From the NCBI GenBank assembly GCA_945865925.1, contig CAMBFG010000002.1, positions 12,421 through 76,420 of the forward strand: a DNA stretch of 64,000 bases, written 5' to 3'. The DNA comes from Dehalococcoides mccartyi (lineage in GTDB: Bacteria; Chloroflexota; Dehalococcoidia; UBA2979). Under the pieces are notes generated by a model that was not told where the DNA came from, did no database searches, and saw only the letters and a list, made by a program, of their open reading frames with translations. This document shows, one piece after another, positions 11,183 to 31,485 of the stretch; position 1 is the stretch's first letter; every line of letters starts with the position of its first letter. The translations under genes and the position numbers were made by a program.

Positions 11183-12459
11183 TTACCGCCGCCGGCTTCT
11201 CCCACCACACGACGCCCGTCCACGTCCGCGAGCGGCTCACCCCGCCAGCCGATGACGTCCCCGGCATCCTGAAGCGCGCGCGCGGCCAGTTCGGTGCCGC
11301 CGCCCTGATCTCCACCTGCAATCGCGTGGAGCTGTACCTCTCCGGCGAACACGAGGCCGGGCCGGTCATCGGCTTCCTCGCGCACGAGTTCGGCACCGAC
11401 GGCGATGTCGCGGAGCGCTATCTCCAGACGTGGCACGGCGTCGAGGCCGTTGAGCACCTCTACCGCGTCGCCAGCGGCCTCGATTCGATGGTGGTCGGCG
11501 AGACAGAGATCCTCGGCCAGGTGCGTGCCGGGTTCTCCGAGGCCGTCCGTGCGGAGACGCAGGACGCCGTCATCTCGCGGCTGTTCCACACGGCAGTACG
11601 CACCGGCCGTCGCGCCCGCAACGAGACCGGCATCGGCGACGGTGCCCTCTCTGTCTCCTCGATCGCCGCGCAGCAGGCGCGCGCGCTCGTCCCGGATCTC
11701 ACCGCGGCGCGCATCCTCGTGGTCGGCGCCGGCGAGGCTGGCCAACTGGCCGCGCAGGCCCTCGTCGCCGCTGGCGCACGCGACATCGTCGTCACCAACC
11801 GCACGCTCGCGCGTGCCGAGTCCGTCGCCGCAGCCCTCGGTGGCTCCGCCGTCCCCTTCGCGGCCCTTGGCACCGCCCTCGCGAGCGCCCACGTCGTCAT
11901 CGGCGCTGCGGGTGCCGCAACTCCGCTTGTCGAGACCGCACACCTCGAAGCCGCATTCGCCACGCGTGACGGCGCACCGCTCGTCATCATCGACATCGCG
12001 ATGCCGCGCACGGTCGATCCGGCCGCGCGCACGATGCCCGGCGTCGCCTACTTCGACCTCGACGACCTGCAGGCGCTCGCCGACCACGCGAGTACTGCCC
12101 GCGCCAGCGAGGTCACCGCCGTCGAGACCATCGTCGCCGAGGAGACCGCCCGCTTCGCCGCCTGGGGCGCCCGCCTGCACATCGGCCCCACGATCGCCGC
12201 GCTCACCGACCGCACCGAGGCCCTCCGCCGGGCCGAGGTCGCGAAGGTGCTGCGTCGCCTCCGCCTCGAAGGCGCCGACCGCGCGCAGGTGGAGGAACTG
12301 ATGGAGGCGGCGACACGCGGCCTGGTGAACCAGTTGCTGGCCGGCCCGATCGCCACGCTCAACGAGCGCCACGACCAGGACGGCTACGTGGACACCGTCC
12401 GCGACCTCTTCCGCCTCGACTCCCGGCCTGACGAGGCCCGCGCGACCGACGCGGACTGA
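11179..12459 (+). CDS. hemA: Glutamyl-tRNA reductase
   Basis: STCNRVE, SGLDSMVVGETEILGQ, GAGEAG, DIAMPR; ATGA overlap with sirC. Confidence 0.95.
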   Translation: MITAAGFSHHTTPVHVRERLTPPADDVPGILKRARGQFGAAALISTCNRVELYLSGEHEAGPVIGFLAHEFGTDGDVAERYLQTWHGVEAVEHLYRVASGLDSMVVGETEILGQVRAGFSEAVRAETQDAVISRLFHTAVRTGRRARNETGIGDGALSVSSIAAQQARALVPDLTAARILVVGAGEAGQLAAQALVAAGARDIVVTNRTLARAESVAAALGGSAVPFAALGTALASAHVVIGAAGAATPLVETAHLEAAFATRDGAPLVIIDIAMPRTVDPAARTMPGVAYFDLDDLQALADHASTARASEVTAVETIVAEETARFAAWGARLHIGPTIAALTDRTEALRRAEVAKVLRRLRLEGADRAQVEELMEAATRGLVNQLLAGPIATLNERHDQDGYVDTVRDLFRLDSRPDEARATDAD

Positions 12460-17198: not shown

Positions 17199-17464
17199 TC
17201 TCGTCCAGATGTCCGATCTCTCCTGCGCCAGCGACGCCTGCCATGATCGGGACAAGATCATCGCGCTGATGCACTGAGAAACAGGCCTCCAGCCTCCGTT
17301 CACACAGCCGTCATGAGAACGCAGCGTGAGCGATATCTTCCGCACGCCTCAGCGTGACCGTCACGACACGTCAGGCACACACGGACGCAAACGAAGATTC
17401 ATCGTCACGAAACCCCCCATTGGTTGGCGCTCCGTACCTTCGAGGTGGGAGAGGTCAGCCACCA

Positions 17465-18979
17465 ATGAGCAACAAGTTCGAGGCGATGAAGGCGGAAAAG
17501 GACGGGCTGGACGTCTGGCCGGACCTCCTGCGCTACGCCGCCGAGGACACCCCGGTCGACCAGATCCCGGACGACGACCTCCAGCGGATGAAGTGGTACG
17601 GGGTCTTTCACCGGCCGCAGACGCCCGGCACCTTCATGATGCGGCTCCGCTTGCCTGGAGGGCGCGCAACCTCTGACCAGCTGCGCGTGATCGCAAGCCT
17701 GGCCGAGGCGGGCACGCACCCCTATCTAGATGTCACATCCCGCCAGAACATCCAGTTGCGCGGTTTCCGCCTCCCCGATGTCCCCGGCATGATCGAGGCG
17801 CTGCGCAGCGCAGGCGTCCTCGCTCAGCAGACCGGCTTGGACAATGTCCGCAACATCATGGGCTGTCCCCTGGCCGGCATCGATGGGAACGAGGTCTTCG
17901 ACGCCACAGACCTCGTCGAAGCGCTCGTGGATCCGTACCTCGGCGACCGCGCCTACTCGAACCTCCCGAGAAAGTTCAACGTCTCGATCACCGGTTGCCG
18001 TCAGGACTGCGGGCACGCGCAGACGCAGGACCTCGGTCTGATCCCTGCGACACTCGATGGTGCCGTTGGCTTTAACGTCCTGGTCGGTGGCGCCCTCGGT
18101 GGTACCTCGCCACGGCTCGCCACTCCGCTCGATGTCTTCGTCGAGCCCGCCGAGGTACAGCCACTCTTCCTCGCACTCTTGCGCGTCTACCGCGACCACG
18201 GGCCACGCGAGAAGCGCACACAGGCCCGGCTCAAGTGGCTGATCGAAGAGTGGGGTGAGCCTCGGCTCCGCGATGCTGTCGAGGCCGAGGTGGGCCACGC
18301 ACTCCGTCGTGCCGGCGCGGACGAGCGCAGCGCGGTCGCCGGCGACCATCTGGGCGTCCACCCGCAGCGCGAGCCAGGTATGTCCTATGTGTGGCTGCAC
18401 GTCGCCGTCGGGAATATCCGCGCTGCGACGCTGCGCGAACTCGCTCGAGTCGCCGAGGTCTACGGACGTGGGGAGGTTCGCCTCACCGTGGACCAGAACG
18501 CGCTCATCCCGCACGTACCAGACGCGTTGCTCCCCACGCTCCTGGCCGAGCCGCTGCTGACCGAACTGCGTCCTGACGTGCCGTCGATCTGGCGGAACCT
18601 CGTTGCCTGTACTGGCAACGACTACTGCCACTACTCGCTGATCGACACGAAGGGAACGGCGCTCCGTGTCGCGACCGAGCTCGAACGCCGCGGTGTCGAG
18701 GCACCAGCGGGCACACGCATCCACGTCTCTGGTTGTGTCCACGCCTGTGCCAAGCACCACATCGCGGACATCGGCATCCAAGGCGTGAACGTCCGCCTCA
18801 ACGGGCAGGTTGAGGAGGCGGGCGACATCTTTGTCGGCGGACGCCTCGGCGACTCCGGCCGTCTCGCCACTCGCTCTCAGGAGAAGGTTTTACTCACCGA
18901 CCTCGCGGATGCCATCGAAGGACTCCTCCGCGGAGCGTCCACCCCCGCACCCATCACATCTCCGGCGATCGCCGGCTAA
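17465..18979 (+). CDS. nirA: Ferredoxin-nitrite reductase (siroheme)
   Basis: MSNKFEAMKAEKDGLD N-terminus, NLPRKFN, CTGNDYCHYSLIDTK, SGCVHAC; precedes the nitrate ABC genes. Confidence 0.88.
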   Translation: MSNKFEAMKAEKDGLDVWPDLLRYAAEDTPVDQIPDDDLQRMKWYGVFHRPQTPGTFMMRLRLPGGRATSDQLRVIASLAEAGTHPYLDVTSRQNIQLRGFRLPDVPGMIEALRSAGVLAQQTGLDNVRNIMGCPLAGIDGNEVFDATDLVEALVDPYLGDRAYSNLPRKFNVSITGCRQDCGHAQTQDLGLIPATLDGAVGFNVLVGGALGGTSPRLATPLDVFVEPAEVQPLFLALLRVYRDHGPREKRTQARLKWLIEEWGEPRLRDAVEAEVGHALRRAGADERSAVAGDHLGVHPQREPGMSYVWLHVAVGNIRAATLRELARVAEVYGRGEVRLTVDQNALIPHVPDALLPTLLAEPLLTELRPDVPSIWRNLVACTGNDYCHYSLIDTKGTALRVATELERRGVEAPAGTRIHVSGCVHACAKHHIADIGIQGVNVRLNGQVEEAGDIFVGGRLGDSGRLATRSQEKVLLTDLADAIEGLLRGASTPAPITSPAIAG

Positions 18980-18992
18980 CGAGAGGATTCCT

Positions 18993-20366
18993 TTGGATCA
19001 CGAGGCCGCTCCCACCACCACTGATCAGGATGTATCCATCGCCTCGGAGGGCGGGCGAGGAGTCCCACGTCGGCGATTCCTGACTCTGGCCGGTGCTGCC
19101 CTCGCCCTGCCGCCCCTGCTCGCGGCCTGCGGCAGCGACGAGTCCGCACCAAAGTCAGATAGCACCGCCGCTGCGCCCGCACCGAACGCCACTGCGGCGC
19201 CCGGCGAAGTCGTCCCTCAGGGATCGGGCGAGAAGATCAAGATCGGTTTCATCGCGCTCACCGACTGCGCCTCGGTCGTGATGGCGAAGGAACTCGGCTA
19301 CTTCAAGAAGTACGGCCTGGATGTGGACGTGGTGAAGCAGGCCTCCTGGGCCAGCACTCGTGACGCGCTCCTGACGGGCGACATCCAGGCCGCGCACATG
19401 CTCTTCGGGATGCCATTCTCCGTGTACACGGGCATCGGTGGCACTGCCGGCAAAGAGATCATGATTGCAATGGTCCTGAACCAGAACGGCCAGGCGATCA
19501 CGCTGTCTAACCCCGACTTCGGCGGCAAGGTCGGCTACAAGCAGACCGATAAGGTGAAGGCCGCCGTTGACGCCGTGCGCGCTCGCAAAGAGCCCACCTT
19601 CGCAATGACCTTCCCAGGCGGCACGCACGACATGTGGCTGCGCTACTGGCTCGCCGCGGCGAACGTCAGCCAGAAGACGGTCAAGATCATCACGATCCCG
19701 CCTCCGCAGATGGTCGCAAACATGAAGGTCGACGCGATGGACGGCTTCTGCGTCGGCGAGCCGTGGGGCGGCGTCGCCGTGAAGGAGAACATCGGCTTCA
19801 CCGCCATCACTACCCAGGACATCTGGAAGCACCACCCCGAGAAGGCCCTCGGCGTCAACGCCGACTTCGCTACCAAGCGTCGAGGCGACCTGAAACTGAT
19901 GGTGCGCGCCATCCTTGAGGCGTCCCAGTACATCGAGGACAAGAAGAACATCCCGAACGTCGCGAAGGTCATCGGTGCGCAGTCGTATGTCAACGCGCCG
20001 GCGGACGTCATCGACAATCGCCTCGAAGGCCGGTACGCGCTCGGGAAGGACCTGGGCGAAGTCACGTTCGGCGAAGACACCATGCGGTTCTACCGCGAGG
20101 GCAACGTGACGTTCCCGAAGTACAGCCACGCGATGTGGTTCATGGCGCAGTACGTGCGGTTCGGGTACCTCAAGGAGATGCCAGCCAACGCCAAGGAGAT
20201 CGCCCAGAAATTGATCATGCAGGACCTCTACAAGGAAGTCGCTGCTGAGATGAAGGTGCCGGTCCCCACCGACGACATGAAGCCCTTCACGCTGGACCTG
20301 GACAACGCCACCTTCGACCCGAACAACCCAGCCGCCTACCTCGCGAAGTACGGGAACCTGGCATGA
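18993..20366 (+). CDS. nrtA: NrtA/CmpA-family substrate-binding Tat lipoprotein (nitrate/nitrite/cyanate type)
   Basis: RRRFL and LAAC; GFIALTD, NGQAI, TFPGGTHD, VGEPW, HPEK (Lys as in NrtA, not Glu as in CmpA). TTG start after GAGAGGA is inferred. Confidence 0.85.
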   Translation: MDHEAAPTTTDQDVSIASEGGRGVPRRRFLTLAGAALALPPLLAACGSDESAPKSDSTAAAPAPNATAAPGEVVPQGSGEKIKIGFIALTDCASVVMAKELGYFKKYGLDVDVVKQASWASTRDALLTGDIQAAHMLFGMPFSVYTGIGGTAGKEIMIAMVLNQNGQAITLSNPDFGGKVGYKQTDKVKAAVDAVRARKEPTFAMTFPGGTHDMWLRYWLAAANVSQKTVKIITIPPPQMVANMKVDAMDGFCVGEPWGGVAVKENIGFTAITTQDIWKHHPEKALGVNADFATKRRGDLKLMVRAILEASQYIEDKKNIPNVAKVIGAQSYVNAPADVIDNRLEGRYALGKDLGEVTFGEDTMRFYREGNVTFPKYSHAMWFMAQYVRFGYLKEMPANAKEIAQKLIMQDLYKEVAAEMKVPVPTDDMKPFTLDLDNATFDPNNPAAYLAKYGNLA

Positions 20367-21220
20367 GCACACTCACGGAACAACGTGTGGCCGTTGGCAC
20401 CCGTGTCGGCGGACGAACCTTCGAGGTCCCCGCGGCGAAGATCGTGCGCAGCATCGCAGTGAACGTGGGCTCGCTCGCCGCAGCGGCCGGCATCCTCGGA
20501 CTGATCTGGGGCATCGCCGCCGCGACAGTCGGTGACGACCTTCCGGGCCCGATTGCGACGATGAAGACATTCTTCACATTGGTCAGCGACCCGTTCTACG
20601 ATCGCGGACCAAACGACAAGGGCATCGGCATCCAACTCGGCGCCTCGCTCTGGCGAGTATTCCGCGGATTCGCGGTCGGGACAGCTGTGGCGATCCCGCT
20701 CGGCGTGCTCATCGGCTCGAGCGAGATCGGACGCCGCGTGTTCGACCCGATCGTGCAAGTCTTGCGACCGGTCTCACCGCTCGCCTGGTTCCCGATCGGC
20801 CTCGTCACCCTGCAGTCGGCTCCGGATGCCGCCGTGTTCGTGGTGTTCATCACGTCGCTCTGGCCCACGGTCATCAACACCGCTTTTGGCGTGTCGAGCA
20901 TTCCGCAGAGTCACCGCAACGTGGCGCGAGTCTTTGAGTTCTCGCCAGGCACCTACCTGCGCCGGGTCGTCATCCCTCACAGCCTCCCGCACATCCTCGT
21001 AGGACTGCGCCTGAGCATCGGTATCGCCTGGGTGGTGATCGTGGCGGCGGAGATGCTCTCCGGCGGCACCGGCATCGGGTTCTACGTCTGGGACGCCTGG
21101 AACGCCCTCGACCTGCAGCGCGTCATCTCCGCCATCCTGCTCATCGGCATCGTCGGCCTGCTCCTCGACCGCGTGGTCTCGATGATCGCCCACCGCTTCG
21201 AGTACCCGGAGGTGCCGTAG
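20363..21220 (+). CDS. nrtB: Nitrate ABC transporter permease
   Basis: DPFYDRGPNDKGIG, LRPVSPLAWFP, IVAAEMLSGG. Confidence 0.9.
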   Translation: MSTLTEQRVAVGTRVGGRTFEVPAAKIVRSIAVNVGSLAAAAGILGLIWGIAAATVGDDLPGPIATMKTFFTLVSDPFYDRGPNDKGIGIQLGASLWRVFRGFAVGTAVAIPLGVLIGSSEIGRRVFDPIVQVLRPVSPLAWFPIGLVTLQSAPDAAVFVVFITSLWPTVINTAFGVSSIPQSHRNVARVFEFSPGTYLRRVVIPHSLPHILVGLRLSIGIAWVVIVAAEMLSGGTGIGFYVWDAWNALDLQRVISAILLIGIVGLLLDRVVSMIAHRFEYPEVP

Positions 21221-22062
21221 TGACCCTCACCACTCATCCTGAAACCCCCATCGATCCGTTCGCCGATCGCCGCTGGCGCGAGACGAGCCGTGCTCCTCAC
21301 ATCGAGGTAGCCGGGGTCGAAGTCTCGTTCGGCGCCTACACGGCGATCACGGGCATCGACCTCGCGATCGCGCGGGGGGAATTCGTCAGCCTGATCGGCC
21401 ACTCCGGCTGTGGCAAATCGACCTTGCTCAATCTGATGGCAGGCCTCGGGCGACCGACGCAGGGCACGGTCCAGGTCGAAGGCCAGATTGTCGAGGGCCC
21501 GGCCGCGGATCGCTGCATGGTCTTCCAGCATCACGGCCTCCTGCCGTGGCTCTCTGTGTACGACAACATCTACGTGGCCGTGGATGCTGCGAGGCGATCC
21601 CACACCACCGACGAGAAGGCCGCGCGCGTGGAGCGTGTGCTCCAGGCCGTGCGGATGTGGGACCACCGAACGAAGAAGCCTGGCATGCTCTCTGGCGGCC
21701 AGCGTCAACGTGTCTCGGTTGCGCGTGCGTTCGCTGTGGCGCCTTCAGTCCTCCTTCTGGACGAGCCCTTCGGTGCGGTCGACGCGCTCACCAAGCGGGC
21801 GCTCCACCGCGAACTCGTCGAACTGTCAAGCATTGTCGGCACGACGGAGACCGTCGTGATGGTCACGCACGACATCGACGAAGCGATCTTCTTGTCTGAT
21901 CGCATCGTCGTAATGACCGACGGGCCTTCTGCTGGCATCCGCGAGATTGTGGACGTGCCGATTGCGCGCCCCCGCACGCTATCCGATGTGATGCACAGCC
22001 CGGTCTACATCGAACTCCGAGACCACCTGCTCAGCCTGCTCGGTGACGACGAACCGCGATAG
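21220..22062 (+). CDS. nrtD: Nitrate ABC transporter ATP-binding protein (NrtC/NrtD type)
   Basis: GHSGCGKST, LSGGQRQR, LLLDEPFGAVD, VTHDIDEA. Confidence 0.88.
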   Translation: MTLTTHPETPIDPFADRRWRETSRAPHIEVAGVEVSFGAYTAITGIDLAIARGEFVSLIGHSGCGKSTLLNLMAGLGRPTQGTVQVEGQIVEGPAADRCMVFQHHGLLPWLSVYDNIYVAVDAARRSHTTDEKAARVERVLQAVRMWDHRTKKPGMLSGGQRQRVSVARAFAVAPSVLLLDEPFGAVDALTKRALHRELVELSSIVGTTETVVMVTHDIDEAIFLSDRIVVMTDGPSAGIREIVDVPIARPRTLSDVMHSPVYIELRDHLLSLLGDDEPR

Positions 22063-22082
22063 CACTCGACACGAGGGACTTC

Positions 22083-22823
22083 ATGACGTCACAACCCGCT
22101 CCCTGGATCAGCCGGCTGTTCTCGTTCGGCAGTAAGGCGAGGACGGCCTCGACGCGTCCCGCCTCGGAACGGCGCATCCGAGAAGGGATCCGACCGCCGA
22201 AGTTCGCAGATAAGTTCGCATTGCTCGACTTCGAGGCGCCGGTCGCGCCGGTCATCTCGATGTTCGCGCCGCCGCCCGAACTCATGCTGGGCGACGTCAC
22301 GATTGGCATCCGCGGCGAAGACCTCAAGTACGCCGACATCCCGTGGTCGACCCTTTCGGCGGTGCCACGCGTCTCGATGAAGGCACCGATGGTCTGTCAG
22401 ATCTTCAACTGGAACGAAGAGATCGAGTGGTCGGGCATCCGACTCGCGGACTTCCTGGAAGCAACCGGATTACAGGTCCACGACCTCGGCTACTTCGTCA
22501 TTCACTCTCGCGATGGCCAATACTTCGAGACGCTCTCGCGCGATGAGGCACTGGACCCGCGAGTCATGCTCGTCAACCAGATGAACGGCCTGCCGCTCCC
22601 ACACGAATACGGCGGCCCGGTCCGCCTCGTGGTGCCGTTCCTGCAGGGGTACAAGAGCGTGAAGTGGGTGGCGCGCATTCACGCCTACCGACACGACCCC
22701 ATCGGCATCAAGCGGCTGCTCGGTCAGAGCAAGTCCGGTGCGCTGGGCCGTGCCTGGCTCGACAAACTCGGAATCGTCCCCGCCGAGGGCCGTGCAGGCG
22801 ATCCGGCCCCCGACCGCGTCTAG
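22083..22823 (+). CDS. Sulfite-oxidase-superfamily molybdopterin-binding oxidoreductase (single Mo domain)
   Basis: Putative Mo-ligand Cys in MVCQIFNW; WSGIRL, MNGLPLPHEYGGPVRLVVP, GYKSVKWV. Confidence 0.85.
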   Translation: MTSQPAPWISRLFSFGSKARTASTRPASERRIREGIRPPKFADKFALLDFEAPVAPVISMFAPPPELMLGDVTIGIRGEDLKYADIPWSTLSAVPRVSMKAPMVCQIFNWNEEIEWSGIRLADFLEATGLQVHDLGYFVIHSRDGQYFETLSRDEALDPRVMLVNQMNGLPLPHEYGGPVRLVVPFLQGYKSVKWVARIHAYRHDPIGIKRLLGQSKSGALGRAWLDKLGIVPAEGRAGDPAPDRV

Positions 22824-24238
22824 CGCAGCGCGAGCACGTCACCCGCACCCGTAGCGACGAACATGGCGGCGCGCGTCGGCGCCAGACTGCGGATGCCATC
22901 GATCTTGCGCTCACCCACGGGCTTGCCGGTGGCCGCGTCCAGCAGCAGCAGGCGGCCTTCCTCGCCGAAGAGGAACCCGTCGGCCGTGGCGATCGGTGCG
23001 ACCACGAGACGACCCGTCGTGGTGCTCCAGACCGGCTTCCCGTCCGCGAGGCTCAGCGCAGCGGCCACCCCATCACGGGAGGTCACCACCGTGACGTCCC
23101 GACCGACTGCGGCAGGCATCGTCGTCCGCGGGAGCGACGTGACGTCCCAGATGGTCGGCGCGGGCGGAACCGCCGGTGCCATACCGATCAGGTGGAAGCG
23201 AAACCATGCGCCTCGGACGCCGTCCCACCACGGGCTGCGTGAGGACGTCTCGAACACCGTCGCGTTCCGGCCGTAGAGGGCGAGCACGCGTCCGTCGCGC
23301 ACCGCCAGCGAGGACGGCTGCGTCCGGGAGAACGCCACATGGAACGTGACCTGGCCGTTCGTGCGGTCGAAGGCAACGGACTTGTCTCCCGTTGCAACGA
23401 CGAGGTACTGACCCTCGACGACCGGCGCGACGGTTGCCCAGCCCACGTCGAGGATCTGCTCCCAGAGAATGCGGCCAGTCTCGGCGTCGAACGCGAACAG
23501 GCCATCGGTGCTGTAGGTGTACACGACGCCATCGACTACCACGGGCGACGCCTGGAACGAGCCGGCGACGAAGCGTGACTGCCACGCCTCCGTGCCGTCC
23601 AACGCGCTCACAACGGTTACGCGCCCTTCGCGCTGAGCGATGTACACGCGGTCACCTGCGATCACCGGCGCCGCAAATGGCGCGGTGCTGAGGGGCAGCG
23701 TCCACAACGTCTTGCCGCTGGCCGCATCAAGGCCGACCACACGGCCGTCCTCGAGTGCCGCCACGACAATCCGCCCATCCGAGACGAGCGGCGTGGCCAC
23801 CGGTGAACCAAGCGAGACCTTCCACGCTTCCGCTCCGCCAACCCGCGAAGGCGCGTCGATGGAACGGAGGCCGCGGGCGTCGCCCTCGGAGGTGGTCCAG
23901 GCGCCGGTAGCCACGGAACGTGTGGCGACCGTCGGGCGGTCAGGCTTCGGCGGCTTGTCGATGAAGGTGGCGTAGACCCACCACCCCACCAGGAGGACCA
24001 GGATCCCCAGCAGCCCGTAACGCCAGATCTGCCCGGCTGAGAACCGCCCCTGCTCCATGCGCTTCGCGAGGCCTGCCTCGACCTTGAGCGCCGTCGCGGC
24101 TTCCTCAGCGGTCAGCGGCGTGACCGACGCGATGTCGCGCCAGCAGTGGAGACAGCGTTCGGAACCGGCGCTGACGCGCCCGCAGGCTGGGCAGCGCCGG
24201 GCGATCTGCGGCTGAACGGGGGCAAGGGTTTCGGGCAT
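22820..24238 (-). CDS. Membrane-anchored PQQ-like/BamB-like beta-propeller protein with N-terminal zinc ribbon
   Basis: CPAC..CLHC, one TM helix, repeated (A/G)(L/F)DAxxGxxxW blades. Confidence 0.8.
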   Translation of the reverse strand: MPETLAPVQPQIARRCPACGRVSAGSERCLHCWRDIASVTPLTAEEAATALKVEAGLAKRMEQGRFSAGQIWRYGLLGILVLLVGWWVYATFIDKPPKPDRPTVATRSVATGAWTTSEGDARGLRSIDAPSRVGGAEAWKVSLGSPVATPLVSDGRIVVAALEDGRVVGLDAASGKTLWTLPLSTAPFAAPVIAGDRVYIAQREGRVTVVSALDGTEAWQSRFVAGSFQASPVVVDGVVYTYSTDGLFAFDAETGRILWEQILDVGWATVAPVVEGQYLVVATGDKSVAFDRTNGQVTFHVAFSRTQPSSLAVRDGRVLALYGRNATVFETSSRSPWWDGVRGAWFRFHLIGMAPAVPPAPTIWDVTSLPRTTMPAAVGRDVTVVTSRDGVAAALSLADGKPVWSTTTGRLVVAPIATADGFLFGEEGRLLLLDAATGKPVGERKIDGIRSLAPTRAAMFVATGAGDVLALR

Positions 24239-24305: not shown

Positions 24306-24974
24306 CTACGCCCGTCGCCCGCGGCGTCCCGCCGCAACCAGCAGCCGCGCCACGACCGCCCCGACGGTCAGCGCCGCCGTCACGAGGTAGAGCGCCCGCG
24401 CGGGCCACGCCAGGGCGTCACTCCCCGCCTGGAGCGCATGGGCGAACGCCAGGATGCACATTCCGAACGAGAGCGCGTGGATCGAGCGCCACCACGCGTA
24501 GGGGATGTAAGCACGCAGCCACGAGGAGATCGCGACGAGGGCCAGGCCCCAGAACGCGACCGTCCCCAGCGCGATCTGCACGCGCATCACGTCCGAGGTA
24601 TAGGGCACCAGCGCCCCTACCAGGGTGATATCGCTGAACGAGTGCGCCACGAACACGGCGACATGCGCGACCACCGCGATCAGCCCGGCCACTGTCCACT
24701 GCTGGTGGAACTCGATCAGCCAGCGTCGCGAGAGCAGCCCCTCCACACCGCGCGCGCTCACGAGGGCCCCCGTGAACAGCGAGGCCCACAGCGCCACGTA
24801 AGAGACGAACCCGGTCGCGCGGCCGGCGTACCAGAGCAGCGGCGTCTCCGATTCGTCGGCCACCGTCAGCAGCGCCGGCACGACGAGGAGCAGCGCGCCG
24901 GTGAAGCAGACGACCGCCAGCCAGCGCACCGGCGCGAGGAGCAGCGGCGGTTCAACCGAGCGTCGGGTGCTCAA
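24306..24974 (-). CDS. Ferric-reductase-like (MsrQ-type) transmembrane cytochrome b
   Basis: About 6 TM helices, WYAGRATG, four candidate haem His (FHQQ, AHVA, IHAL, AHAL). Confidence 0.82.
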   Translation of the reverse strand: MSTRRSVEPPLLLAPVRWLAVVCFTGALLLVVPALLTVADESETPLLWYAGRATGFVSYVALWASLFTGALVSARGVEGLLSRRWLIEFHQQWTVAGLIAVVAHVAVFVAHSFSDITLVGALVPYTSDVMRVQIALGTVAFWGLALVAISSWLRAYIPYAWWRSIHALSFGMCILAFAHALQAGSDALAWPARALYLVTAALTVGAVVARLLVAAGRRGRRA

Positions 24975-25818
24975 GCCACGCCCCCATCCCCGGCGTCATC
25001 CACCATCCACCGTCGTCACCTTCGATCAGCACTTCCGCCCCATGCGAGCGCACGACATCGAGGCTGCCGGTGCCGCCTGCGACGAGCGTCGTCGCCAGCA
25101 CATCCGCTGTCGTCGCGCGCCGGTGCGCCACCACCGCGCTCCGGACGCCTCGGAACGCGGGCGCGCCGGTCGAGGTGTCGATCACGTGGTGGGCGACCAC
25201 GCCGCTCGCCGTCATCCACCGGCGCTTCGCCGTCGACGACGTCGCCACGGCGCCGGGCCCGAGCCATGCCACGAGGCCATCCCCCACGCCGACCGGCCAC
25301 GGCACCGAGGGCGTGTTGCCTGCGCGCAGGTCCCCGCCGCCGTCGACGAGGTACCGGTCGACTCCGTGCGCCTCGAGGTAGTCGGCGACCGCATCGACCG
25401 CCCAGCCCTTGCCGATGCCACCGAGGTCGAGCGTCCCCTCGCCATCGAGGGTCACCCGATCGCCCGCCACGGTCGCGGAAGGCCGAGCCGTATCGGGATA
25501 GCCGACGACGCCGCTCTGGACTACCTCGAAACTGCGGTCGTAGCCGGCTGCCACCAGCGCGGCCCCAACACCCGGGTCGAAGACACCTTCGGTCGCGTCG
25601 CGCCACTCGAGGGCGGCTCGGACGACGGCGGCCAGCAAGGGATCCGTGGCGGTGCGGTCGCGGTTGAGCGTGCTCAATGCGGAGCACTCGCGAAAGCGCG
25701 ACAGGCGGGCCTCGATGTCCCCTACGAGCGCCTCAATGTCGTCGAGGACACGCGGGGTGGCGCCGTAGGTGCGCACCCACCACTCCGTGTTCATCGCGTG
25801 GAAGGTGCGCTCCTGCAC
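24952..25818 (-). CDS. apbE: FAD:protein FMN transferase
   Basis: LSRFRECSALSTLN, DLGGIGKGWAVD, GGGD, VATSS, HHVID, ADVLAT. Confidence 0.93.
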   Translation of the reverse strand: MQERTFHAMNTEWWVRTYGATPRVLDDIEALVGDIEARLSRFRECSALSTLNRDRTATDPLLAAVVRAALEWRDATEGVFDPGVGAALVAAGYDRSFEVVQSGVVGYPDTARPSATVAGDRVTLDGEGTLDLGGIGKGWAVDAVADYLEAHGVDRYLVDGGGDLRAGNTPSVPWPVGVGDGLVAWLGPGAVATSSTAKRRWMTASGVVAHHVIDTSTGAPAFRGVRSAVVAHRRATTADVLATTLVAGGTGSLDVVRSHGAEVLIEGDDGGWWMTPGMGAWLEHPTLG

Positions 25819-25827
25819 GGTCGAGGC

Positions 25828-26313
25828 TCAGGAAGCCCGCGACGGCCGGATGATCCGGCGCGGCGTCGCAGTCACCGAGGGCGTCGCGGAGGCGGTGGGT
25901 ACCGCCGTCGGCGTCAGGGCAGGAGTCGCCGTCGGGGCGGGGACGAGTCCCGGGGCTGGCGCGGTAGGTGACGAGGCGGTCGCCGCGGTAGCCGTCGCTC
26001 GCGGGGCAGTCGCCGTGGCCCCGGCCACGGCAGTGCTCGTAGGAGCCGCTGTGGGGCTGCTGGTGGCTGTTGGGACGGGCTGTGCGGGCGCTGGGCTCGT
26101 CGTACCGGCCGGCGTCGATGTTGCCGCGACAGGCGCGCTGGAGGCCGGGTCGCCGCCGGAGCTTCGGATGGCCTCGGCCAGCGCCGTCGAGTCCTGCTCA
26201 GCCGCCTCGCGTGCACGGCGCGATTCGTCGGCGCGGGAGACGCCGAACCACGATCCCGCCAGCACAGCCAGCGAGGTTGCCGCCACGAACAGGTTGACCA
26301 GCGTCCGCCGCAC
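25828..26313 (-). CDS. Membrane-anchored Pro/Thr/Ala-rich protein with C-terminal SRAS (candidate flavinylation substrate)
   Basis: GTG start, N-terminal hydrophobic helix, long low-complexity PAT linker, ends PRRIIRPSRAS 9 bp before apbE. Confidence 0.7.
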   Translation of the reverse strand: MRRTLVNLFVAATSLAVLAGSWFGVSRADESRRAREAAEQDSTALAEAIRSSGGDPASSAPVAATSTPAGTTSPAPAQPVPTATSSPTAAPTSTAVAGATATAPRATATAATASSPTAPAPGLVPAPTATPALTPTAVPTASATPSVTATPRRIIRPSRAS

Positions 26314-26433
26314 TACGCCCCCTGCGCGGCCCCCGCCGCGACTGGTGCCCGAATCTGTGCGCAGAGCGCCGTGAAGACGTCCGCGTGCAGTCTCGGGCTC
26401 AACATCAGAACGATACCTTCCCGCTGTTCGTTT

Positions 26434-26460
26434 GGAATGCGATAGGAACGTCATCGGTAA
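26434..26460. promoter_or_regulatory. Candidate OmpR/PhoB-type direct-repeat binding site
   Basis: GGAAT/GGAAC/GGTAA at 26434, 26445 and 26456 (11-bp period) in the divergent intergenic region. Confidence 0.4.
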
Positions 26461-26510
26461 CGCCTGTGTCGGCACAGCACCGTCACAGGATTCGGACGTA
26501 CGCTCAGTGC

Positions 26511-27176
26511 ATGCGAATTCTCGTGGCCGAAGACGACACCCGCCTCGCCCGCCTCGTAGAGCGCGGACTTGCCGCTGAGGGACACGACGTCCAGGTGGCC
26601 CATGATGGCGAAGAAGCGCTCTTCCTCGCCCGGGAGGCTCTGCCTGACCTCATCGTGATGGACGTGATGATGCCGCGCCTCGATGGGTTCGAGTGTGTCC
26701 GCCAGATGCGGGCCGAGCGCATGGACACCCCCGTCATCTTCCTGACGGCGCGCGGGCAACTCGATGACCGGGTGAAGGGCCTCGACCTGGGCGGCGACGA
26801 CTACCTCGTCAAGCCGTTCGCGTTCGACGAACTCACTGCCCGTGTGCGCGCGTTGGGCCGCCGCGCCGCTGGTGCCGAGGGCGACGTCCTCACGTCGGGG
26901 CGCGTCTCGCTCGATGTGCGCCGGCACGAGACGAGTGTGGACGGGGTCGCCGTCGACCTCTCCCCCACCGAGTACCGCCTCCTGGAGCACCTCATGCGCC
27001 ACGTCGGTCAGGCACTGACCCGGCAGGCGATCCTCTCCGCCGTCTGGGGCTTCGACTCAGAACCGGAACCGAATGCCGTTGACCTCTATGTGCACTACCT
27101 CCGCCGAAAGTTGGGGGATGCCGTCGCCATCGCGACGGTCCGAGGTGTGGGCTACCGCCTCGACCGAGCCGTCTGA
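26511..27176 (+). CDS. OmpR-family response regulator
   Basis: ILVAEDD, MDVMMP, FLTAR, DDYLVKPF, winged-helix TVRGVGY. Confidence 0.95.
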   Translation: MRILVAEDDTRLARLVERGLAAEGHDVQVAHDGEEALFLAREALPDLIVMDVMMPRLDGFECVRQMRAERMDTPVIFLTARGQLDDRVKGLDLGGDDYLVKPFAFDELTARVRALGRRAAGAEGDVLTSGRVSLDVRRHETSVDGVAVDLSPTEYRLLEHLMRHVGQALTRQAILSAVWGFDSEPEPNAVDLYVHYLRRKLGDAVAIATVRGVGYRLDRAV

Positions 27177-28673
27177 GTGATCCGCCGCGCCCGACTGCGC
27201 CTGACGCTCTGGTACAGCGCCGCACTCCTCGTGGTGCTCCTCATGCTGTCCGTGGTCACCTACACCGCTGTGACCCGCACGCTCCGACGCGAACTCGAAG
27301 AAGGCATCTCCAGCGCCGTCACCCAGTGGCTGGAGGTCTCACGACGCCCCCCGGCGCGTCCCGGTGAAGGGCCCGCCGCCCGCGGTCCCGGGTTCAACCT
27401 CCGGCCGAACGCCACACCCTTCACCCGTGCCACATCGACGGCCACACCACTGGCAGCAGCATCCCCGGACGCCACCCCAACCGTAACCGCAGCAGGTGCC
27501 ACAGCCTCGCCGTCCCCGCAGGCCTCGCCCCCAGCTGCGCCAGCGACTGCTGCGCCGCCACGCCCAGCCGGCACGCCTCGTGCCCGCCTCGACCCCCGGC
27601 TCCTGTTCGCCGGAGACACTGCTGACGTCACCGATGTGGGCTCTACCAGCGATGTCTTCCTCCTCGCCTACCGCGCAGACGGCGTGCTGGCAGTCAACCA
27701 GCGGCGGGTGAATCCCGAGGCGATCACGACCTCCGACGCTGTCGCCAAGGCACTGGCCGGTGAAGCTTCGTGGGCGACCGTGCATGACGACGGCGTCAAC
27801 CTCCGCATCCATGCGAGCCCGATCGAGGTTGCAGGGCGTACGGAAGGCGTCGTCGTCGGTGCGCGCAACCTGGACGAGTACGACCGGCAGGTCCGCGCCG
27901 TACTGACCGTCCTGGCGATGGTGGCCGTTGGCGGGGGACTCATGTCCCTGGCGGGCGCCTACCTGTTCGCCGGCCATGCGCTGCAGCCGCTGGAAGAAGC
28001 CTACGGACGCCAGCGCTCGTTCGTCGCGGACGCCTCCCACGAACTGCGTTCCCCCCTTGCTGTCATCCGCGCCTCGGTCGACCTCTTGCTGCGCGAGCCG
28101 CTGCCCGCACCTCACCGCGAGAGCGTGGAGGAGATCCGAGACGTCACGCAGGAGGCTGCCACCCTGATCGACGACCTGCTCGAACTCGCGCATGCCGAGG
28201 AAGGCACGCCCGGCCACGCCGACAGCGATCTTGCTGTTGAGGTATCAGCAGCCATCGAGCAAGTCAGAGCGATCCTCGAACGGCGGAACCACGCGGTGAG
28301 CACCGTGCTCGCCCCGGTCCAGGCCGGAGCGGCGGGCGCGGAAGTCCGTCGCATCGTGCGGGCGCTCCTCGAGAACGTCGCGGCCCATACGCCCGAGGGC
28401 ACGCCCGTCCGCGTGGAGGTCGCCGAGCGCGGCGGCCACGCGATCCTCGCAGTTGAAGATGCCGGCCCCGGGATCCAGGACGGCCAGGAAGCGACCGTCT
28501 TCGAGCGGTTCGCGCGCCTCGACGAGGCACGCACACCCGGCACCGGCCACGGCGCCGGGCTCGGCCTCTCGATCGTACGAGCGCTGGCAGAGCGTCGAGG
28601 TGGCACGGTCAGCGCGTCACGCCCCGCGGACGGCGGCCTGCGCGTCGAGGTCTCGCTCCCCCTCGCGAAGTAG
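27177..28673 (+). CDS. Sensor histidine kinase
   Basis: Two TM helices, H-box DASHELRSPL, DAGPGI, FERFAR, GAGLGLSI. Confidence 0.93.
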   Translation: MIRRARLRLTLWYSAALLVVLLMLSVVTYTAVTRTLRRELEEGISSAVTQWLEVSRRPPARPGEGPAARGPGFNLRPNATPFTRATSTATPLAAASPDATPTVTAAGATASPSPQASPPAAPATAAPPRPAGTPRARLDPRLLFAGDTADVTDVGSTSDVFLLAYRADGVLAVNQRRVNPEAITTSDAVAKALAGEASWATVHDDGVNLRIHASPIEVAGRTEGVVVGARNLDEYDRQVRAVLTVLAMVAVGGGLMSLAGAYLFAGHALQPLEEAYGRQRSFVADASHELRSPLAVIRASVDLLLREPLPAPHRESVEEIRDVTQEAATLIDDLLELAHAEEGTPGHADSDLAVEVSAAIEQVRAILERRNHAVSTVLAPVQAGAAGAEVRRIVRALLENVAAHTPEGTPVRVEVAERGGHAILAVEDAGPGIQDGQEATVFERFARLDEARTPGTGHGAGLGLSIVRALAERRGGTVSASRPADGGLRVEVSLPLAK

Positions 28674-28679
28674 CGCGGG

Positions 28680-29426
28680 TTAAGCGAGCCCGAGCGCCGC
28701 GGGCACAGCGCCCAGCGGGATGCGGCGGCAGGTGAACATCGGCGTGTCGAACAGCGTGTACGCGGACGCCTCGGTGTCGCGCAGTTCACGCACGAGCGCC
28801 AGGAACTGGCCGGGGTCGTTGCCCTCGAAGGCGACCACAAACTCCTGATCGTCCAGCCCGTACGAGTATGTCGTGTTGATCTTGATGTCGTGGTACTTGT
28901 GGCCGATGGCGATGTGCTCGTCCATCATCCGCTGCCGTTCCGCCGCAGACTGCGCGTACCAGGCTCGCGTCTTCGCCATCGGGTAGACGAACAGGAACTC
29001 GTCCGTCCCGCCGTCCGTGCGCAGCCGCTCCCGCGACGTGGCGCCCTCATGCTGGGGGTTCGTGTACAGCGACCGCATGGTCATCGACAGATACGAGCGC
29101 GGTACGTCCAGCCACGCACCCACGGAGGACGCTCGCAGCGCCTCGTGCCAGTCCATCACCACGCGCAGGTCGTCGTGTACCTGCCACAGCAGCACGTCCA
29201 CGTCACCGCGCGTCCCCGCCGTGGTGTAGGCGCGCGTCAGCATCGCTTCGCCGGAGGCATCGAGATGACCGAGCAGCGTCTCCGCGAGCGCGGCTCGTTC
29301 CATCTGCGGCAACCGGCGTGCCTCGCCGGGCATCTTGAAGAACGTGAACTTCACACTCTGGACGCCGCGCGGCGTCCGAGGCGCCTGGCCGTCCGTCTGC
29401 GCCGGTCGATGGGTGTCGGTGGTCAT
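28680..29426 (-). CDS. chdC: Coproheme decarboxylase (HemQ/ChdC, chlorite dismutase family)
   Basis: YPMAK (Tyr/Lys), WY, MMDEH (proximal His), YSYGLDDQEF; lacks the distal Arg of true chlorite dismutases. Confidence 0.78.
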   Translation of the reverse strand: MTTDTHRPAQTDGQAPRTPRGVQSVKFTFFKMPGEARRLPQMERAALAETLLGHLDASGEAMLTRAYTTAGTRGDVDVLLWQVHDDLRVVMDWHEALRASSVGAWLDVPRSYLSMTMRSLYTNPQHEGATSRERLRTDGGTDEFLFVYPMAKTRAWYAQSAAERQRMMDEHIAIGHKYHDIKINTTYSYGLDDQEFVVAFEGNDPGQFLALVRELRDTEASAYTLFDTPMFTCRRIPLGAVPAALGLA

Positions 29427-30493
29427 GCCGTCACCTCGGATGCCGCGGCGACGCAGAGCGCCTCCCAGTGGTCGTATGCGTCGATGAAATAGGGGAGGCG
29501 GATCTTCTTGTACTCGGTGGTCGAATAGAGGACCTGATAGTCCGTAATGCCCACCTCGCGGCTGATCGCCAGCGCCGTCTCCTCCACCCCCGCCACCTTC
29601 TGGTGGTGGATCATCGAGAAGACGGAGTACGGCCAGTCCGGGTACGTCGGCCGCTCGTAGCAGTGCGAGACGTTGCGGTAGCCCGCGACGAAGCGGCCCA
29701 CCTCCGGGATGCGCTCCGCAGGCACCTGCCACACGGCCATGCCGTTCGCACGGAAGCCTGCCTGCCGATGGTTGAGGATCGCCGCGAACCGTCGCAAGAA
29801 CCCGCGCTCCGCGAGGCGTCCTGCACGCTCGAGGACGGTCGCGACGTCGCAACCGAGCGCGCGCGCGACCGGCGCGAACGGCTCCGGGATGTCCTCGAAG
29901 TCGCCCTGCGTCGCCCGGATGAACTCGATGTCCTCCGCCGTCAGCGCGCCGCCGAGGGCGTGGTTCCGCCGCTCCTGCGTGTACTCGGGCTCCCCACGAG
30001 CATCGACGGCACGCGTCGCAGTCATGTCGAGGGTGACGCCGATCTTGAATAGGTGGAGCGTGGGCATCTCCCGGGTGGAGTCCGCACCAGCGAGGTCGTG
30101 CAACCGCTGGATGACCGCGCTGAGGTCGTGCCCGGGCGGCATCGCGACGGTGAACCAGAGGTTGAACGCGTGGTTGCGCCGGTAGTTGTGCGAGACGCCG
30201 GGGTGCGCATTCACCACGCGGGCCGCGTGAGCGAGGCGTTCCACCGGCACCTGCATCGCGACCAGCGCGGAGGAGTACCCGAGCGCTTTCGTGTCATAGA
30301 TCGCGCAGATCTGGCGCACCACGCCCACCGCCCGCGCCTCGCGCAGCCGGTCGAGCACCTCGGCCTCCCCCATGTCGAGGCGCGCACCCATCGCGGCATA
30401 CGGCCGCGGGTCGAGCGGGAACGCTTCCTGCATCACATCGAGGAGTGCGCGGGTGCGCTCGTCCAGCCCGGGCTTCGCAGCGGTCGTGGTCAT
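29423..30493 (-). CDS. ahbAB: Fused siroheme decarboxylase AhbA-AhbB (NirDL/GH-like, AsnC fold)
   Basis: FPLDPRPY, GVSHNYRR, NLWFT; second half HRQAGFRANGMAVW, VSHCYER, WPYSVFSMIH, LYSTTEYKK. Confidence 0.9.
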   Translation of the reverse strand: MTTTAAKPGLDERTRALLDVMQEAFPLDPRPYAAMGARLDMGEAEVLDRLREARAVGVVRQICAIYDTKALGYSSALVAMQVPVERLAHAARVVNAHPGVSHNYRRNHAFNLWFTVAMPPGHDLSAVIQRLHDLAGADSTREMPTLHLFKIGVTLDMTATRAVDARGEPEYTQERRNHALGGALTAEDIEFIRATQGDFEDIPEPFAPVARALGCDVATVLERAGRLAERGFLRRFAAILNHRQAGFRANGMAVWQVPAERIPEVGRFVAGYRNVSHCYERPTYPDWPYSVFSMIHHQKVAGVEETALAISREVGITDYQVLYSTTEYKKIRLPYFIDAYDHWEALCVAAASEVTA

Positions 30494-31485
30494 GGCGTCA
30501 CCTCTACCGGCAGTCCGTAGTTGCTCGCATACAGCCGCTCGATCGCCTCGGCCTGCGCGTCGAGGATCGGCAGCGCGTCCGAGGCGGCCGCGAACTCCTC
30601 GAGTTGCGCGACGTCGTAGACATTGGGAAGCGCAGAGACGACCGAGGGCGAGCGCAGCACGAAGCGCAGCGCCACCTGGCCCAACGTGCAGCCGTTCTCC
30701 TGCTCCAGGAAGCGCAGGCGCTCGACCTTCTGGACACCCTCGATCAGCCACGTGCGCGGCCGGTGGCGGCGGTGGTCGCCCTCCGGGAAGACGGTGTCGG
30801 CGGTGTAGCGGCCCTCGAGCATCCCCGACGAATGAGGCACACGGACGACGAGGCTCTTCCCCATCCGCCCGGTGGCCTCGATCAGTGCGCGGCCGGGATC
30901 GAGTTCGAGCGCGTTGTAGATCATCTGCACGGCGTCGACGGGCAGGGACCCGAGGGCGTACCGGCCCTCCTCCGCCCACCCGATCGCCGGCCCGAGGGCG
31001 ACGCCGACCGCGCGCACTTTCCCCGCACGCCTCGCGCGCTCGACGAACGACCAGACGTCGTCGTCCAGCAGGTGTGCCATCCGGGGGTTGTGCATCTGGT
31101 AGAGGTCGATGTGGTCGGTGCCGAGGCGACGGAGCGAGGCGTCCAGCGATGCCTCCAGGAACGGCACGTCGAAGCGGTGGGGCGCCTCGCGGTGCCCGGC
31201 GTCCGAGGCGTCTCGCGACTGCCAGTCGTAGCCGAACTTCGCGCCGATGGTGATCCGGTCGCGAGCACTGCCCGGGAACGCGTACGCGAGGAGCGTCTCG
31301 CCTCGACCGTTGCCATACGTATCGGCGGTGTCGAGGAAGGTGACGCCGAGGTCCACGGCGCGGTGCAGCATGGCTGCCGCTTCGTCGTCGCTGTGGTCAC
31401 CCCACCACCCGGCGGCCAGCGTCCAGACGCCGAACCCGATCTCAGAGACCCGTACGCCTGTCCCAGCGATCTCGCGCGTCTGCAT
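30490..31485 (-). CDS. Aldo/keto reductase
   Basis: SEIGFGVW, DTADTYGNG, AKFG, SLRRLGTDHIDLYQMHNP; GGAGG RBS; ATGA overlap with ahbAB. Confidence 0.9.
   Translation of the reverse strand: MQTREIAGTGVRVSEIGFGVWTLAAGWWGDHSDDEAAAMLHRAVDLGVTFLDTADTYGNGRGETLLAYAFPGSARDRITIGAKFGYDWQSRDASDAGHREAPHRFDVPFLEASLDASLRRLGTDHIDLYQMHNPRMAHLLDDDVWSFVERARRAGKVRAVGVALGPAIGWAEEGRYALGSLPVDAVQMIYNALELDPGRALIEATGRMGKSLVVRVPHSSGMLEGRYTADTVFPEGDHRRHRPRTWLIEGVQKVERLRFLEQENGCTLGQVALRFVLRSPSVVSALPNVYDVAQLEEFAAASDALPILDAQAEAIERLYASNYGLPVEVTP

Follow-up and report, generated by a model that had tools for sequence, protein, structure and literature searches.

A candidate minimal electron-export module in Chloroflexota: a membrane-anchored arm with a conserved C-terminal serine motif, ApbE and a predicted di-haem cytochrome

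The window analysed here is a 64,000-nucleotide stretch (positions 12,421 to 76,420 of contig CAMBFG010000002.1, assembly GCA_945865925.1) of a 92%-complete genome labelled Dehalococcoides mccartyi. Our subject is a group of three minus-strand open reading frames (ORFs) in it, at positions 26313-25828, 25818-24952 and 24974-24306, which encode a membrane-anchored arm protein, the flavin transferase ApbE and a membrane cytochrome, respectively; the apbE and cytochrome genes overlap by 23 nt. An earlier reading of the bare DNA (the sequence-only reading) had described a three-gene operon, with an arm ending in PRRIIRPSRAS, apbE and an overlapping ferric-reductase-like gene, and all of these elements are indeed present. 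The closest named relatives found in a similarity scan are Chloroflexota, mostly Dehalococcoidia.

The arm gene (25828..26313, minus strand) has a GTG start and encodes 161 amino acids (aa), arranged as an N-terminal membrane anchor (residues 5-23; 26245..26301, minus strand; hydropathy window 1.76), a short charged helix-like stretch, a linker of about 100 aa rich in Pro, Ala, Thr and Ser, and a conserved C-terminal tail. Residues 51-150 are 84% Pro/Ala/Thr/Ser, and the protein contains no Cys, His or internal Met; from this composition, it is likely to be a floppy, disordered tether. The arm has no Pfam match at an E-value of 0.1 and gives only noise in NCBIfam, and the Atlas clusters closest to it are unnamed Chloroflexota proteins. 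The four closest arms are identical in their final 12 residues and divergent in the linker. The chain ends in the heptamer I-R-P-S-R-A-S, and in view of the family tail profile (see below) the last residue of its terminal S-R-A-S (residues 158-161; 25831..25842, minus strand), Ser161, is probably the acceptor of flavin mononucleotide (FMN).

The second gene (24952..25818, minus strand) encodes a flavin adenine dinucleotide (FAD):protein FMN transferase without a signal peptide or lipobox. Its product matches PF02424 with an E-value of 1.6e-45 (156 bits against a curated cut-off of 25.6), and it is the only apbE that we found in the genome. Ser194, His211 and Asp239 align with the triad Ser241/His257/Asp285 of the Vibrio cholerae enzyme (PMC12052999; chain 6nxi, E-value 9.6e-23), and the variant chain 6nxj has no His aligned to His211. 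In an alignment of 81 rows, Lys137 of the metal site is invariant, Ser194 and His211 are kept in at least 90% of the rows, and most relatives have Glu at position 239. The structure model has a predicted local distance difference test (pLDDT) score of 94.6. The catalytic residues being present, the protein is predicted to be an active FAD:protein FMN transferase. Export signals were judged from hydropathy and frame length: the frame is open for 291 codons, of which 288 are used, and because only 3 more codons are available, no upstream signal peptide is possible. The absence of such a signal, already suspected in the sequence-only reading, is a family-wide trait, since a hydrophobic leader occurs in 2 of the 89 cytochrome-linked loci of the survey described below, against 33 of 94 others, and a lipobox in none of the 89.

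The third gene (24306..24974, minus strand) encodes a 222-aa, six-helix membrane protein with a ferric reductase domain (NOX/STEAP/MsrQ superfamily), which is predicted from its histidines and its fold to bind two b haems. In a wide structure search its model (pLDDT 87.7, six long helices) matched STEAP4 (Z 16.0, root-mean-square deviation 4.1, 207 aligned residues), NOX5 (Z 13.6-13.7) and also STEAP1, in keeping with a six-helix fold around a four-helix haem core; Foldseek alone returned no match to the model at an E-value of 0.001. This cytochrome itself does not match PF01794, but 55 of 80 aligned members of its family do so at an E-value of 0.01 or less, and the family profile matches SpNOX (E-value 1.3e-5). 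The four candidate haem ligands pointed out earlier, His90, His104, His166 and His179, are invariant in 80 of 80 aligned homologues and are spaced 14 and 13 residues apart on two helices. In MsrQ the first ligand position is Arg77, which forms part of the FMN pocket, whereas NOX has a haem His there (PMC12525009, section 6). Judged by the spacing of the histidines, His90 occupies this Arg77 position, and because it does so, we predict two b haems spanning the membrane and a NOX-like rather than MsrQ-like protein. About 15 cytochromes of the family (L107:275-877(-), L109:2926-3564(+) and 13 more; L numbers denote loci of our survey) show, besides an additional helix and a GP(L)xxGW motif, a beta-rich-looking domain of about 150 aa, a candidate outer docking domain that gave no Pfam match in the two proteins scanned.

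We also predicted the complex of the anchor region of the arm with the cytochrome and two haems. The prediction scored 0.59 against 0.00 for the best control, with at least 88% of the contacts agreeing between runs and a partner pLDDT of at least 78; in the calibration of this score, 18 of 157 solved complexes reached a pass of this grade, as did both of the two mismatches, among 215, that passed at all. The model thus lends weak support to a packing of the arm anchor on the cytochrome. No column is invariant in an alignment of the anchors across the arms.

For the survey of the family, loci were chosen by apbE alone, namely, the locus itself, 80 loci from the similarity scan, the best-scoring 90 of about 340 matches in 301 genomes of the phylum, and 17 loci of close relatives. 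Under a strict filter, which demanded an adjacent ORF ending in [S/T]xxS, an arm is present in 71 of the 94 cytochrome-linked apbE loci and in 5 of the 94 without a cytochrome, and most of the misses have the same motif followed by one Arg or Lys. A widened filter allows one such trailing residue and asks for a hydrophobic segment; with 5 duplicates left out, it gives 82 of 89 and 9 of 94. The nine filter-positive loci without a cytochrome comprise two true arms (L026 and L110), one canonical internal motif (L120) and six that by eye resemble shadow frames. Since only 12 of 1406 long proxy genes of the genome end in [ST]xxS(R/K)?, the terminal motif in the cytochrome-linked loci is far above chance. 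By label, 75 of the 82 arms belong to Chloroflexota, 4 to Bacillota and 3 to Pseudomonadota, and with all sets taken together arms are seen across Chloroflexota, Bacillota, Actinomycetota and Pseudomonadota. In a held-out set of 30 Bacillota loci, three of the four cytochrome loci pass (one of them from the genome of L021 again), the fourth arm ends in TGAS, and none of the 26 others passes; 24 of these 26 have an ApbE with a hydrophobic leader. A plasmid set consisted of the 12 records opened out of 15 matched (Arthrobacter, Rhodococcus, Gordonia, Mycolicibacterium, Streptomyces, Alicyclobacillus, Paenibacillus, Peribacillus and Psychrobacter); of its 12 loci, eight pass and another three have one or two residues after the motif, while in the last one the arm is interrupted and apbE is split. 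All 97 arm-linked ApbEs that were scored fall into one clade of 116 rows in a tree of 221 rows (FastTree, SH-like support 95). At the level of sequence, the survey thus establishes that the three genes are coupled, that the terminal [S/T]-x-x-S is conserved and linked to the cytochrome, and that a single ApbE clade serves all arms.

Several observations on individual loci accompany the survey. The interrupted copy lies on a Peribacillus plasmid (L204:2375-5449, plus strand), directly after tatA-tatC and amid metal-transport genes; an in-frame stop interrupts its arm, and its apbE is in two pieces. At 11 loci (L014, L024, L028, L126, L128, L148, L150, L151, L163, L169 and L222) an ApbE of the same clade occurs with neither arm nor cytochrome in the stretch fetched, and the substrate of these enzymes may be encoded elsewhere. 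The arm gene is small and lacks annotation in some public records (L191, L193, L201 and L202), so many copies are probably invisible to surveys.

The tail profile of the 82 arms bears out the proposal that the terminal motif would be kept in syntenic homologues, and the motif grades into the canonical [S/T]GA[S/T]. The position -3 is Ser in 42, Thr in 39 and Gly in 1, -2 is Arg in 46 and Gly in 24, and -1 is Ala in 26, Ser in 20, Gly in 14 and Arg in 9, with the last Ser fixed by the filter. The endings include SRAS (16 arms), TRSS (13), TRRS (9), SGGS (8), SGAS (1) and TGAS (1), and a further canonical TGAS ending is found at locus L206. The canonical heptamer D-x-x-[S/T]-G-A-[S/T] is not matched by the tail of the present arm, and two of the 82 tails end in SGAS or TGAS. 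A trailing Arg or Lys follows the motif in 13 of the 82 arms, and others add Gln, Pro or Gly-Gly. We considered and rejected two other accounts of the tail. Stop-codon readthrough fusing the arm to ApbE, whose ORFs are in frame here, is contradicted by only 14 of 71 adjacent pairs being in frame and by the use of all three stop codons (DNA level: ALTERNATIVES). Nor is the tail mainly shaped by the next gene, through its ribosome-binding site or an overlap with its start, as Arg at -2 is encoded by CGN in 33 of 46 cases, a Shine-Dalgarno-like 4-mer lies in the last four codons of 18 of 82 arms and an NTGA-type end occurs in 28 of 82, neither of these last two features being present here. A third observation was given no weight as evidence: the terminal Ser is encoded by TCN in 81 of 82 arms against 495 of 764 linker Ser, but TCN is also the usual codon where ordinary genes end in Ser (102 of 111 among the proxy genes of the genome, 78 of 99 among the long ORFs at the loci).

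We also compared the tails with the enzyme. Among all columns tried, the best was Asp159 of ApbE, beside the active-site GGD, which is acidic in 43 of 49 sequences paired with Arg/Lys at tail position -2 and in 3 of 32 others. By the -2 residue, position 159 is Asp in 46 and Asn in 7 with Arg, and acidic in 3 of 27 with Gly. On independent pairs, the co-variation is not significant (2.8 pairs changing in the same direction, 0.1 in the opposite one and 4.0 unchanged; median p 0.25). Recognition of the Arg at -2 by a co-evolved Asp159 is possible, and we regard it as a lead only.

The sequence-only reading had noted that the operon encodes no folded FMN-binding domain, and this holds; moreover, no known class of ApbE substrate was found across the 92%-complete genome. 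No FMN_bind, DUF2271, RnfD/NqrB or Flavodoxin_4 gene was found in it: PF04205, PF03116, PF10029 and PF12682 had no match while the controls matched (4 of 14 for the PF04205 control). A search for DUF3570 was likewise blank and had no positive control. One partial FMN_red match exists elsewhere in the genome, without the canonical motif. Of 19 frames listed in the genome with D-x-x-[S/T]-G-A-[S/T], none was a plausible ApbE substrate, judging by the three inspected; by eye, these resemble a formyltransferase, a TolB-like protein and a membrane protein of GGDEF type, and their motifs look incidental.

The topology was judged on 78 of the 82 arms, four being dropped for a wrong hydrophobic window. 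Lys and Arg average 4.0 before and 0.8 after the anchor, the N-terminal count exceeds the C-terminal one in 72 of 78 arms, and an Alicyclobacillus arm has a PG_binding_1 domain (E-value 2e-18) between anchor and tail. Because of this positive-inside bias and the one peptidoglycan-binding insert, the tail is predicted to face outward, and an N-in/C-out orientation is likely. If the tail is outside and is the substrate of a signal-less, hence cytoplasmic, ApbE, FMN would have to be added before or during export. Ten of the 78 arms, the present one among them, show a pattern resembling a twin-arginine translocation (Tat) signal, and the genome has tatC; Tat as the general export route is questionable at this frequency, and the arms may use Sec or Tat.

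As to the electron donor, the cytochrome had been called quinol-oxidising in the sequence-only reading, and this part was not upheld. A cytoplasmic redox partner accompanies it in 9 of the 12 plasmid loci, as a NuoF-like protein with a ferredoxin (6), an NAD(P)/FAD oxidoreductase with a ferredoxin (1) or a cytochrome fusion annotated 2Fe-2S (2), and a 2025 study of Escherichia coli MsrQ found redox potentials that contradict ubiquinone as the donor (PMC12525009). Among the downstream frames scanned (88 of 125 candidates) there are 4 NuoF-like and 4 haem proteins, and two PF10589 genes lie elsewhere in the present genome. The donor is presumably of the cytoplasmic NAD(P)H/ferredoxin type and encoded elsewhere in the genome, and quinol is less likely. 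The acceptor is the weakest step, for which metal handling is our leading guess: VIT genes occur at L194 and L203, and ZIP, oxidase and P-type ATPase genes at L204. In addition, an upstream gene with an Asp/Glu/His-rich tail, absent from the present locus, is found in 23 of the 82 arm loci. Often ending in ...HDDD, it overlaps or abuts the arm start (L005-L008, L010, L022, L122, L168, L177 and others); the products inspected have a membrane anchor, and a metal-binding partner is possible. Two anchored proteins with Met/Gly-rich repeats, possibly copper-binding, are encoded upstream of the arm on a Streptomyces plasmid (L199:2365-3650, plus strand). A DUF2231 membrane protein also recurs close to the operon, on its downstream side at L010, L015 and L181 and upstream at L193 and L201.

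Taken together, the operon would constitute a minimal electron-export module made of an ApbE-flavinylated arm and a di-haem cytochrome, a reading that we favour moderately. In it, the signal-less ApbE would put FMN on Ser161 of the anchored disordered arm before or during export, and the arm would insert N-in/C-out beside the cytochrome, with its tail outside. Electrons would pass from a cytoplasmic NAD(P)H/ferredoxin donor through the two haems to the tethered FMN at the outer face, and acceptors at the surface, ferric iron or redox proteins for example, would receive them from the flavinylated arm. The broader proposal, that the arms form a widespread natural flavin-tag class in which a clade of cytoplasmic ApbEs flavinylates a C-terminal Ser and the FMN crosses on the unfolded chain to work outside, on a swinging redox arm serving a NOX-like di-haem cytochrome, is put forward tentatively, at somewhat less than an even chance.

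A number of points weigh against this export module. The filter giving 82 of 89 was widened after the misses had been seen, and 7 of the 89 cytochrome loci lack an arm that the filter detects, although L141 and L167 have one on inspection and two others are cut by the locus ends. Since the loci are kin, the raw linkage counts are inflated, and on independent pairs the link between arm and cytochrome is not significant (median p 0.125). A cytoplasmic ApbE and an outside tail require FMN to cross the membrane on the chain, with the Tat-like pattern confined to the few arms mentioned. There is no donor gene in this operon, and PF00175 was not found in the genome. The motif also lacks the upstream Asp and, in this arm, the Gly of D-x-x-[S/T]-G-A-[S/T]. 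For one ApbE enzyme, loss of the Asp has a minor effect and a Gly-to-Ala change halves labelling, and the accessible text of the same source holds no report of a Gly-to-Arg change (PMC12052999). We found no precedent for attack by a Ser bearing a free carboxylate in the literature as far as its text was accessible, where the C-terminal tag F1 has three residues beyond the modified Thr (PMC9400968). Finally, flavinylation of NqrC depends on its Lys207 (PMC4767422), and the arm has no domain like the one that provides this residue; the Arg-rich tail might stand in for it.

Four other explanations were weighed against the export module. The terminal motif could be a docking, sorting or proteolysis signal (for example, for co-export of ApbE), with the enzyme using an unrecognised substrate or turning over FAD. 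The departure of the tail from the canonical heptamer fits such a view, as do the hydrolysis of FAD by some ApbE/Ftp proteins (PMC4767422), the 92% completeness of the genome and the DUF3570 search without a control. We consider it unlikely, since the two conserved positions are both Ser/Thr of [S/T]GA[S/T], SGAS and TGAS occur in the family, and no other substrate gene co-occurs. Furthermore, most terminal sorting signals strictly need a free C-terminus, which the residues trailing the motif in a number of arms show not to be strictly needed here. About as improbable is a flavinylated arm that faces the cytoplasm and ferries electrons from an NAD(P)H/ferredoxin enzyme to the inner haem, like FMN/FAD for MsrQ and STEAP. 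Enzyme and tail would then share a compartment, as the signal-less ApbE of 87 of 89 loci suggests, MsrQ does use FMN on the cytoplasmic side (PMC12525009), and the tail of this arm is strongly basic. However, the positive-inside bias places the C-terminus outside in 72 of 78 arms, one arm bears a peptidoglycan-binding domain, His90 fills the position that forms the flavin pocket of MsrQ, and loci whose cytochrome is already fused to a 2Fe-2S-annotated domain (L190 and L199) still have an arm.

Two explanations remain. The anatomy might be the same with the quinol pool as donor, with inward electron flow, or with envelope redox sensing for the adjacent two-component system; the lack of a donor gene in this operon and in most Chloroflexota copies (NuoF-like in 4 of 88 downstream frames), the response regulator adjacent in 31 of 66 loci and the binding of ubiquinone by MsrQ (PMC12525009) speak for it. 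Nevertheless, it is quite improbable given the cytoplasmic partners in 9 of the 12 plasmid loci and the two PF10589 genes of this genome. Moreover, quinol would poorly reduce a flavin of such low potential as that of the covalent tag. The FMN of that tag titrates near -221 mV (PMC9400968). Least probable of all appears the release of the flavinylated arm, by cleavage behind the hydrophobic segment, as a flavopeptide that shuttles by diffusion. In this arm and its closest relatives a small-x-Ala sequence (S/V/G-R-A) follows the hydrophobic segment, which we take to resemble a signal peptidase I site; but such a site is missing from many arms, an anchor-cytochrome contact is weakly predicted, and with total lengths between 68 and 188 aa the arms vary as a tether would.

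Upstream of the operon lies a divergent intergenic region (26314..26510), in which short blocks are conserved with three close relatives (four sequences, hence weak); they are presumed to be promoters and regulator sites. Beyond it are a divergent OmpR-type response regulator (26511..27176, plus strand) and its cognate HisKA/HATPase sensor kinase (27177..28673, plus strand), both assigned by Pfam/NCBIfam matches. The former is the likely regulator of the operon, as a response regulator is found near 31 of 66 arm loci of at least 5 kb against 5 of 65 other loci. The sensor kinase resembles the arm linker in composition over a long Pro/Ala/Thr-rich segment that follows its first membrane helix. 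Genes of chlorite dismutase/ChdC type and for a siroheme decarboxylase (AhbAB/NirDL-like) follow beyond the kinase (28680-30979, minus strand); they are kept in three close relatives and could supply haem b. On the other side, a nitrite/sulfite-reductase-like gene, a nitrate-type ABC transporter (both labelled by eye) and a PF00174 molybdopterin protein without an evident export signal (17354-22823, plus strand) converge on the operon, and a protein with a zinc-ribbon, a membrane anchor and a PQQ-like beta-propeller is encoded 67 nt after the cytochrome on the same strand (22820-24238, minus strand). A functional link to the molybdopterin gene or to the beta-propeller was rejected, as these occur near only 1 and 4 of the 82 arm loci, respectively, the beta-propeller in the closest relatives only.

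By its gene content, the arm operon is a variant of the published MsrQ-like flavinylation systems (Meheust et al. 2021, PMC8238504; Huang et al. 2024, PMC11334425). In these, too, apbE lies beside a six-helix PF01794-type cytochrome with two predicted haems, some copies have NuoF-like, NAD-binding or VIT1 genes, and outward electron transfer has been proposed. A PF01794-type gene within five genes of apbE, as used in PMC8238504, is found here in adjacent, even overlapping, position, its assignment being made through homologues and fold. The arm clusters differ in having no FMN_bind, DUF2271 or DUF3570 gene, and their candidate substrate is an anchored tail that has no domain and carries Ser as, or close to, its last residue. 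The entry filter of PMC8238504 asks for a signal peptide or lipidation on ApbE, or for FMN_bind, DUF2271 or DUF3570 in the cluster; because their ApbE is signal-less and no known substrate gene is present, the arm clusters do not pass it. E. coli MsrQ and the NOX/STEAP transmembrane domains share the ferric reductase domain fold with the present cytochrome. However, MsrQ has one haem and FMN (Arg77) whereas this protein, like NOX, has His at all four ligand positions (PMC12525009), and unlike NOX it has no dehydrogenase domain. Nor is there a conserved MsrP partner as in MsrPQ, the PF00174 gene (22083-22823) standing on the other strand, after the nitrate genes, and near 1 of 82 arm loci.

ApbE is known to modify short terminal tags, and cytoplasmic ApbEs exist (PMC12052999). 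The engineered flavin-tag (Tong et al.; PMC12052999, PMC9400968) shows that a short unstructured peptide at a terminus is enough for ApbE. That tag is artificial and retains D-x-x-S-G-A-T, with further residues beyond the modified Thr; in the natural arm tails the Asp is missing, the Gly is often replaced by Arg, and the chain stops at Ser. FMN_red proteins of Lactococcus have their flavinylation site on a predicted unstructured C-terminal extension, yet the FMN on it folds back into a flavin-binding domain of the same protein (PMC11334425), and the arm has no domain of any kind. The ApbE for the Klebsiella pneumoniae fumarate reductase also has no signal peptide, but its substrate is soluble and cytoplasmic (PMC12052999), whereas the arm, the putative substrate here, would end up outside. 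We found no paper on a natural domain-free anchored ApbE substrate in a search that left subscription journals mostly uncovered, and the MsrQ-like cluster list of PMC8238504 may hold some of our loci.

In summary, the three genes are a real, conserved module with a candidate new class of ApbE substrate. Meheust et al. noted that genomes with orphan apbE genes remain and that further substrates are unidentified (PMC8238504), and the arm family falls into this gap left by their filter and names an exact residue. If our reading is true, there would be a class of substrates without a folded domain, the ApbE motif would be widened to a C-terminal [S/T]-x-x-S, and natural short tags with a matching cytoplasmic enzyme would become available for protein labelling. 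The maturation of an extracytoplasmic flavin carrier without external FAD was called obscure in a 2025 review (PMC12052999); the arms would offer an answer, since FAD would not need to be exported, and they would provide a substrate for many orphan apbE genes.

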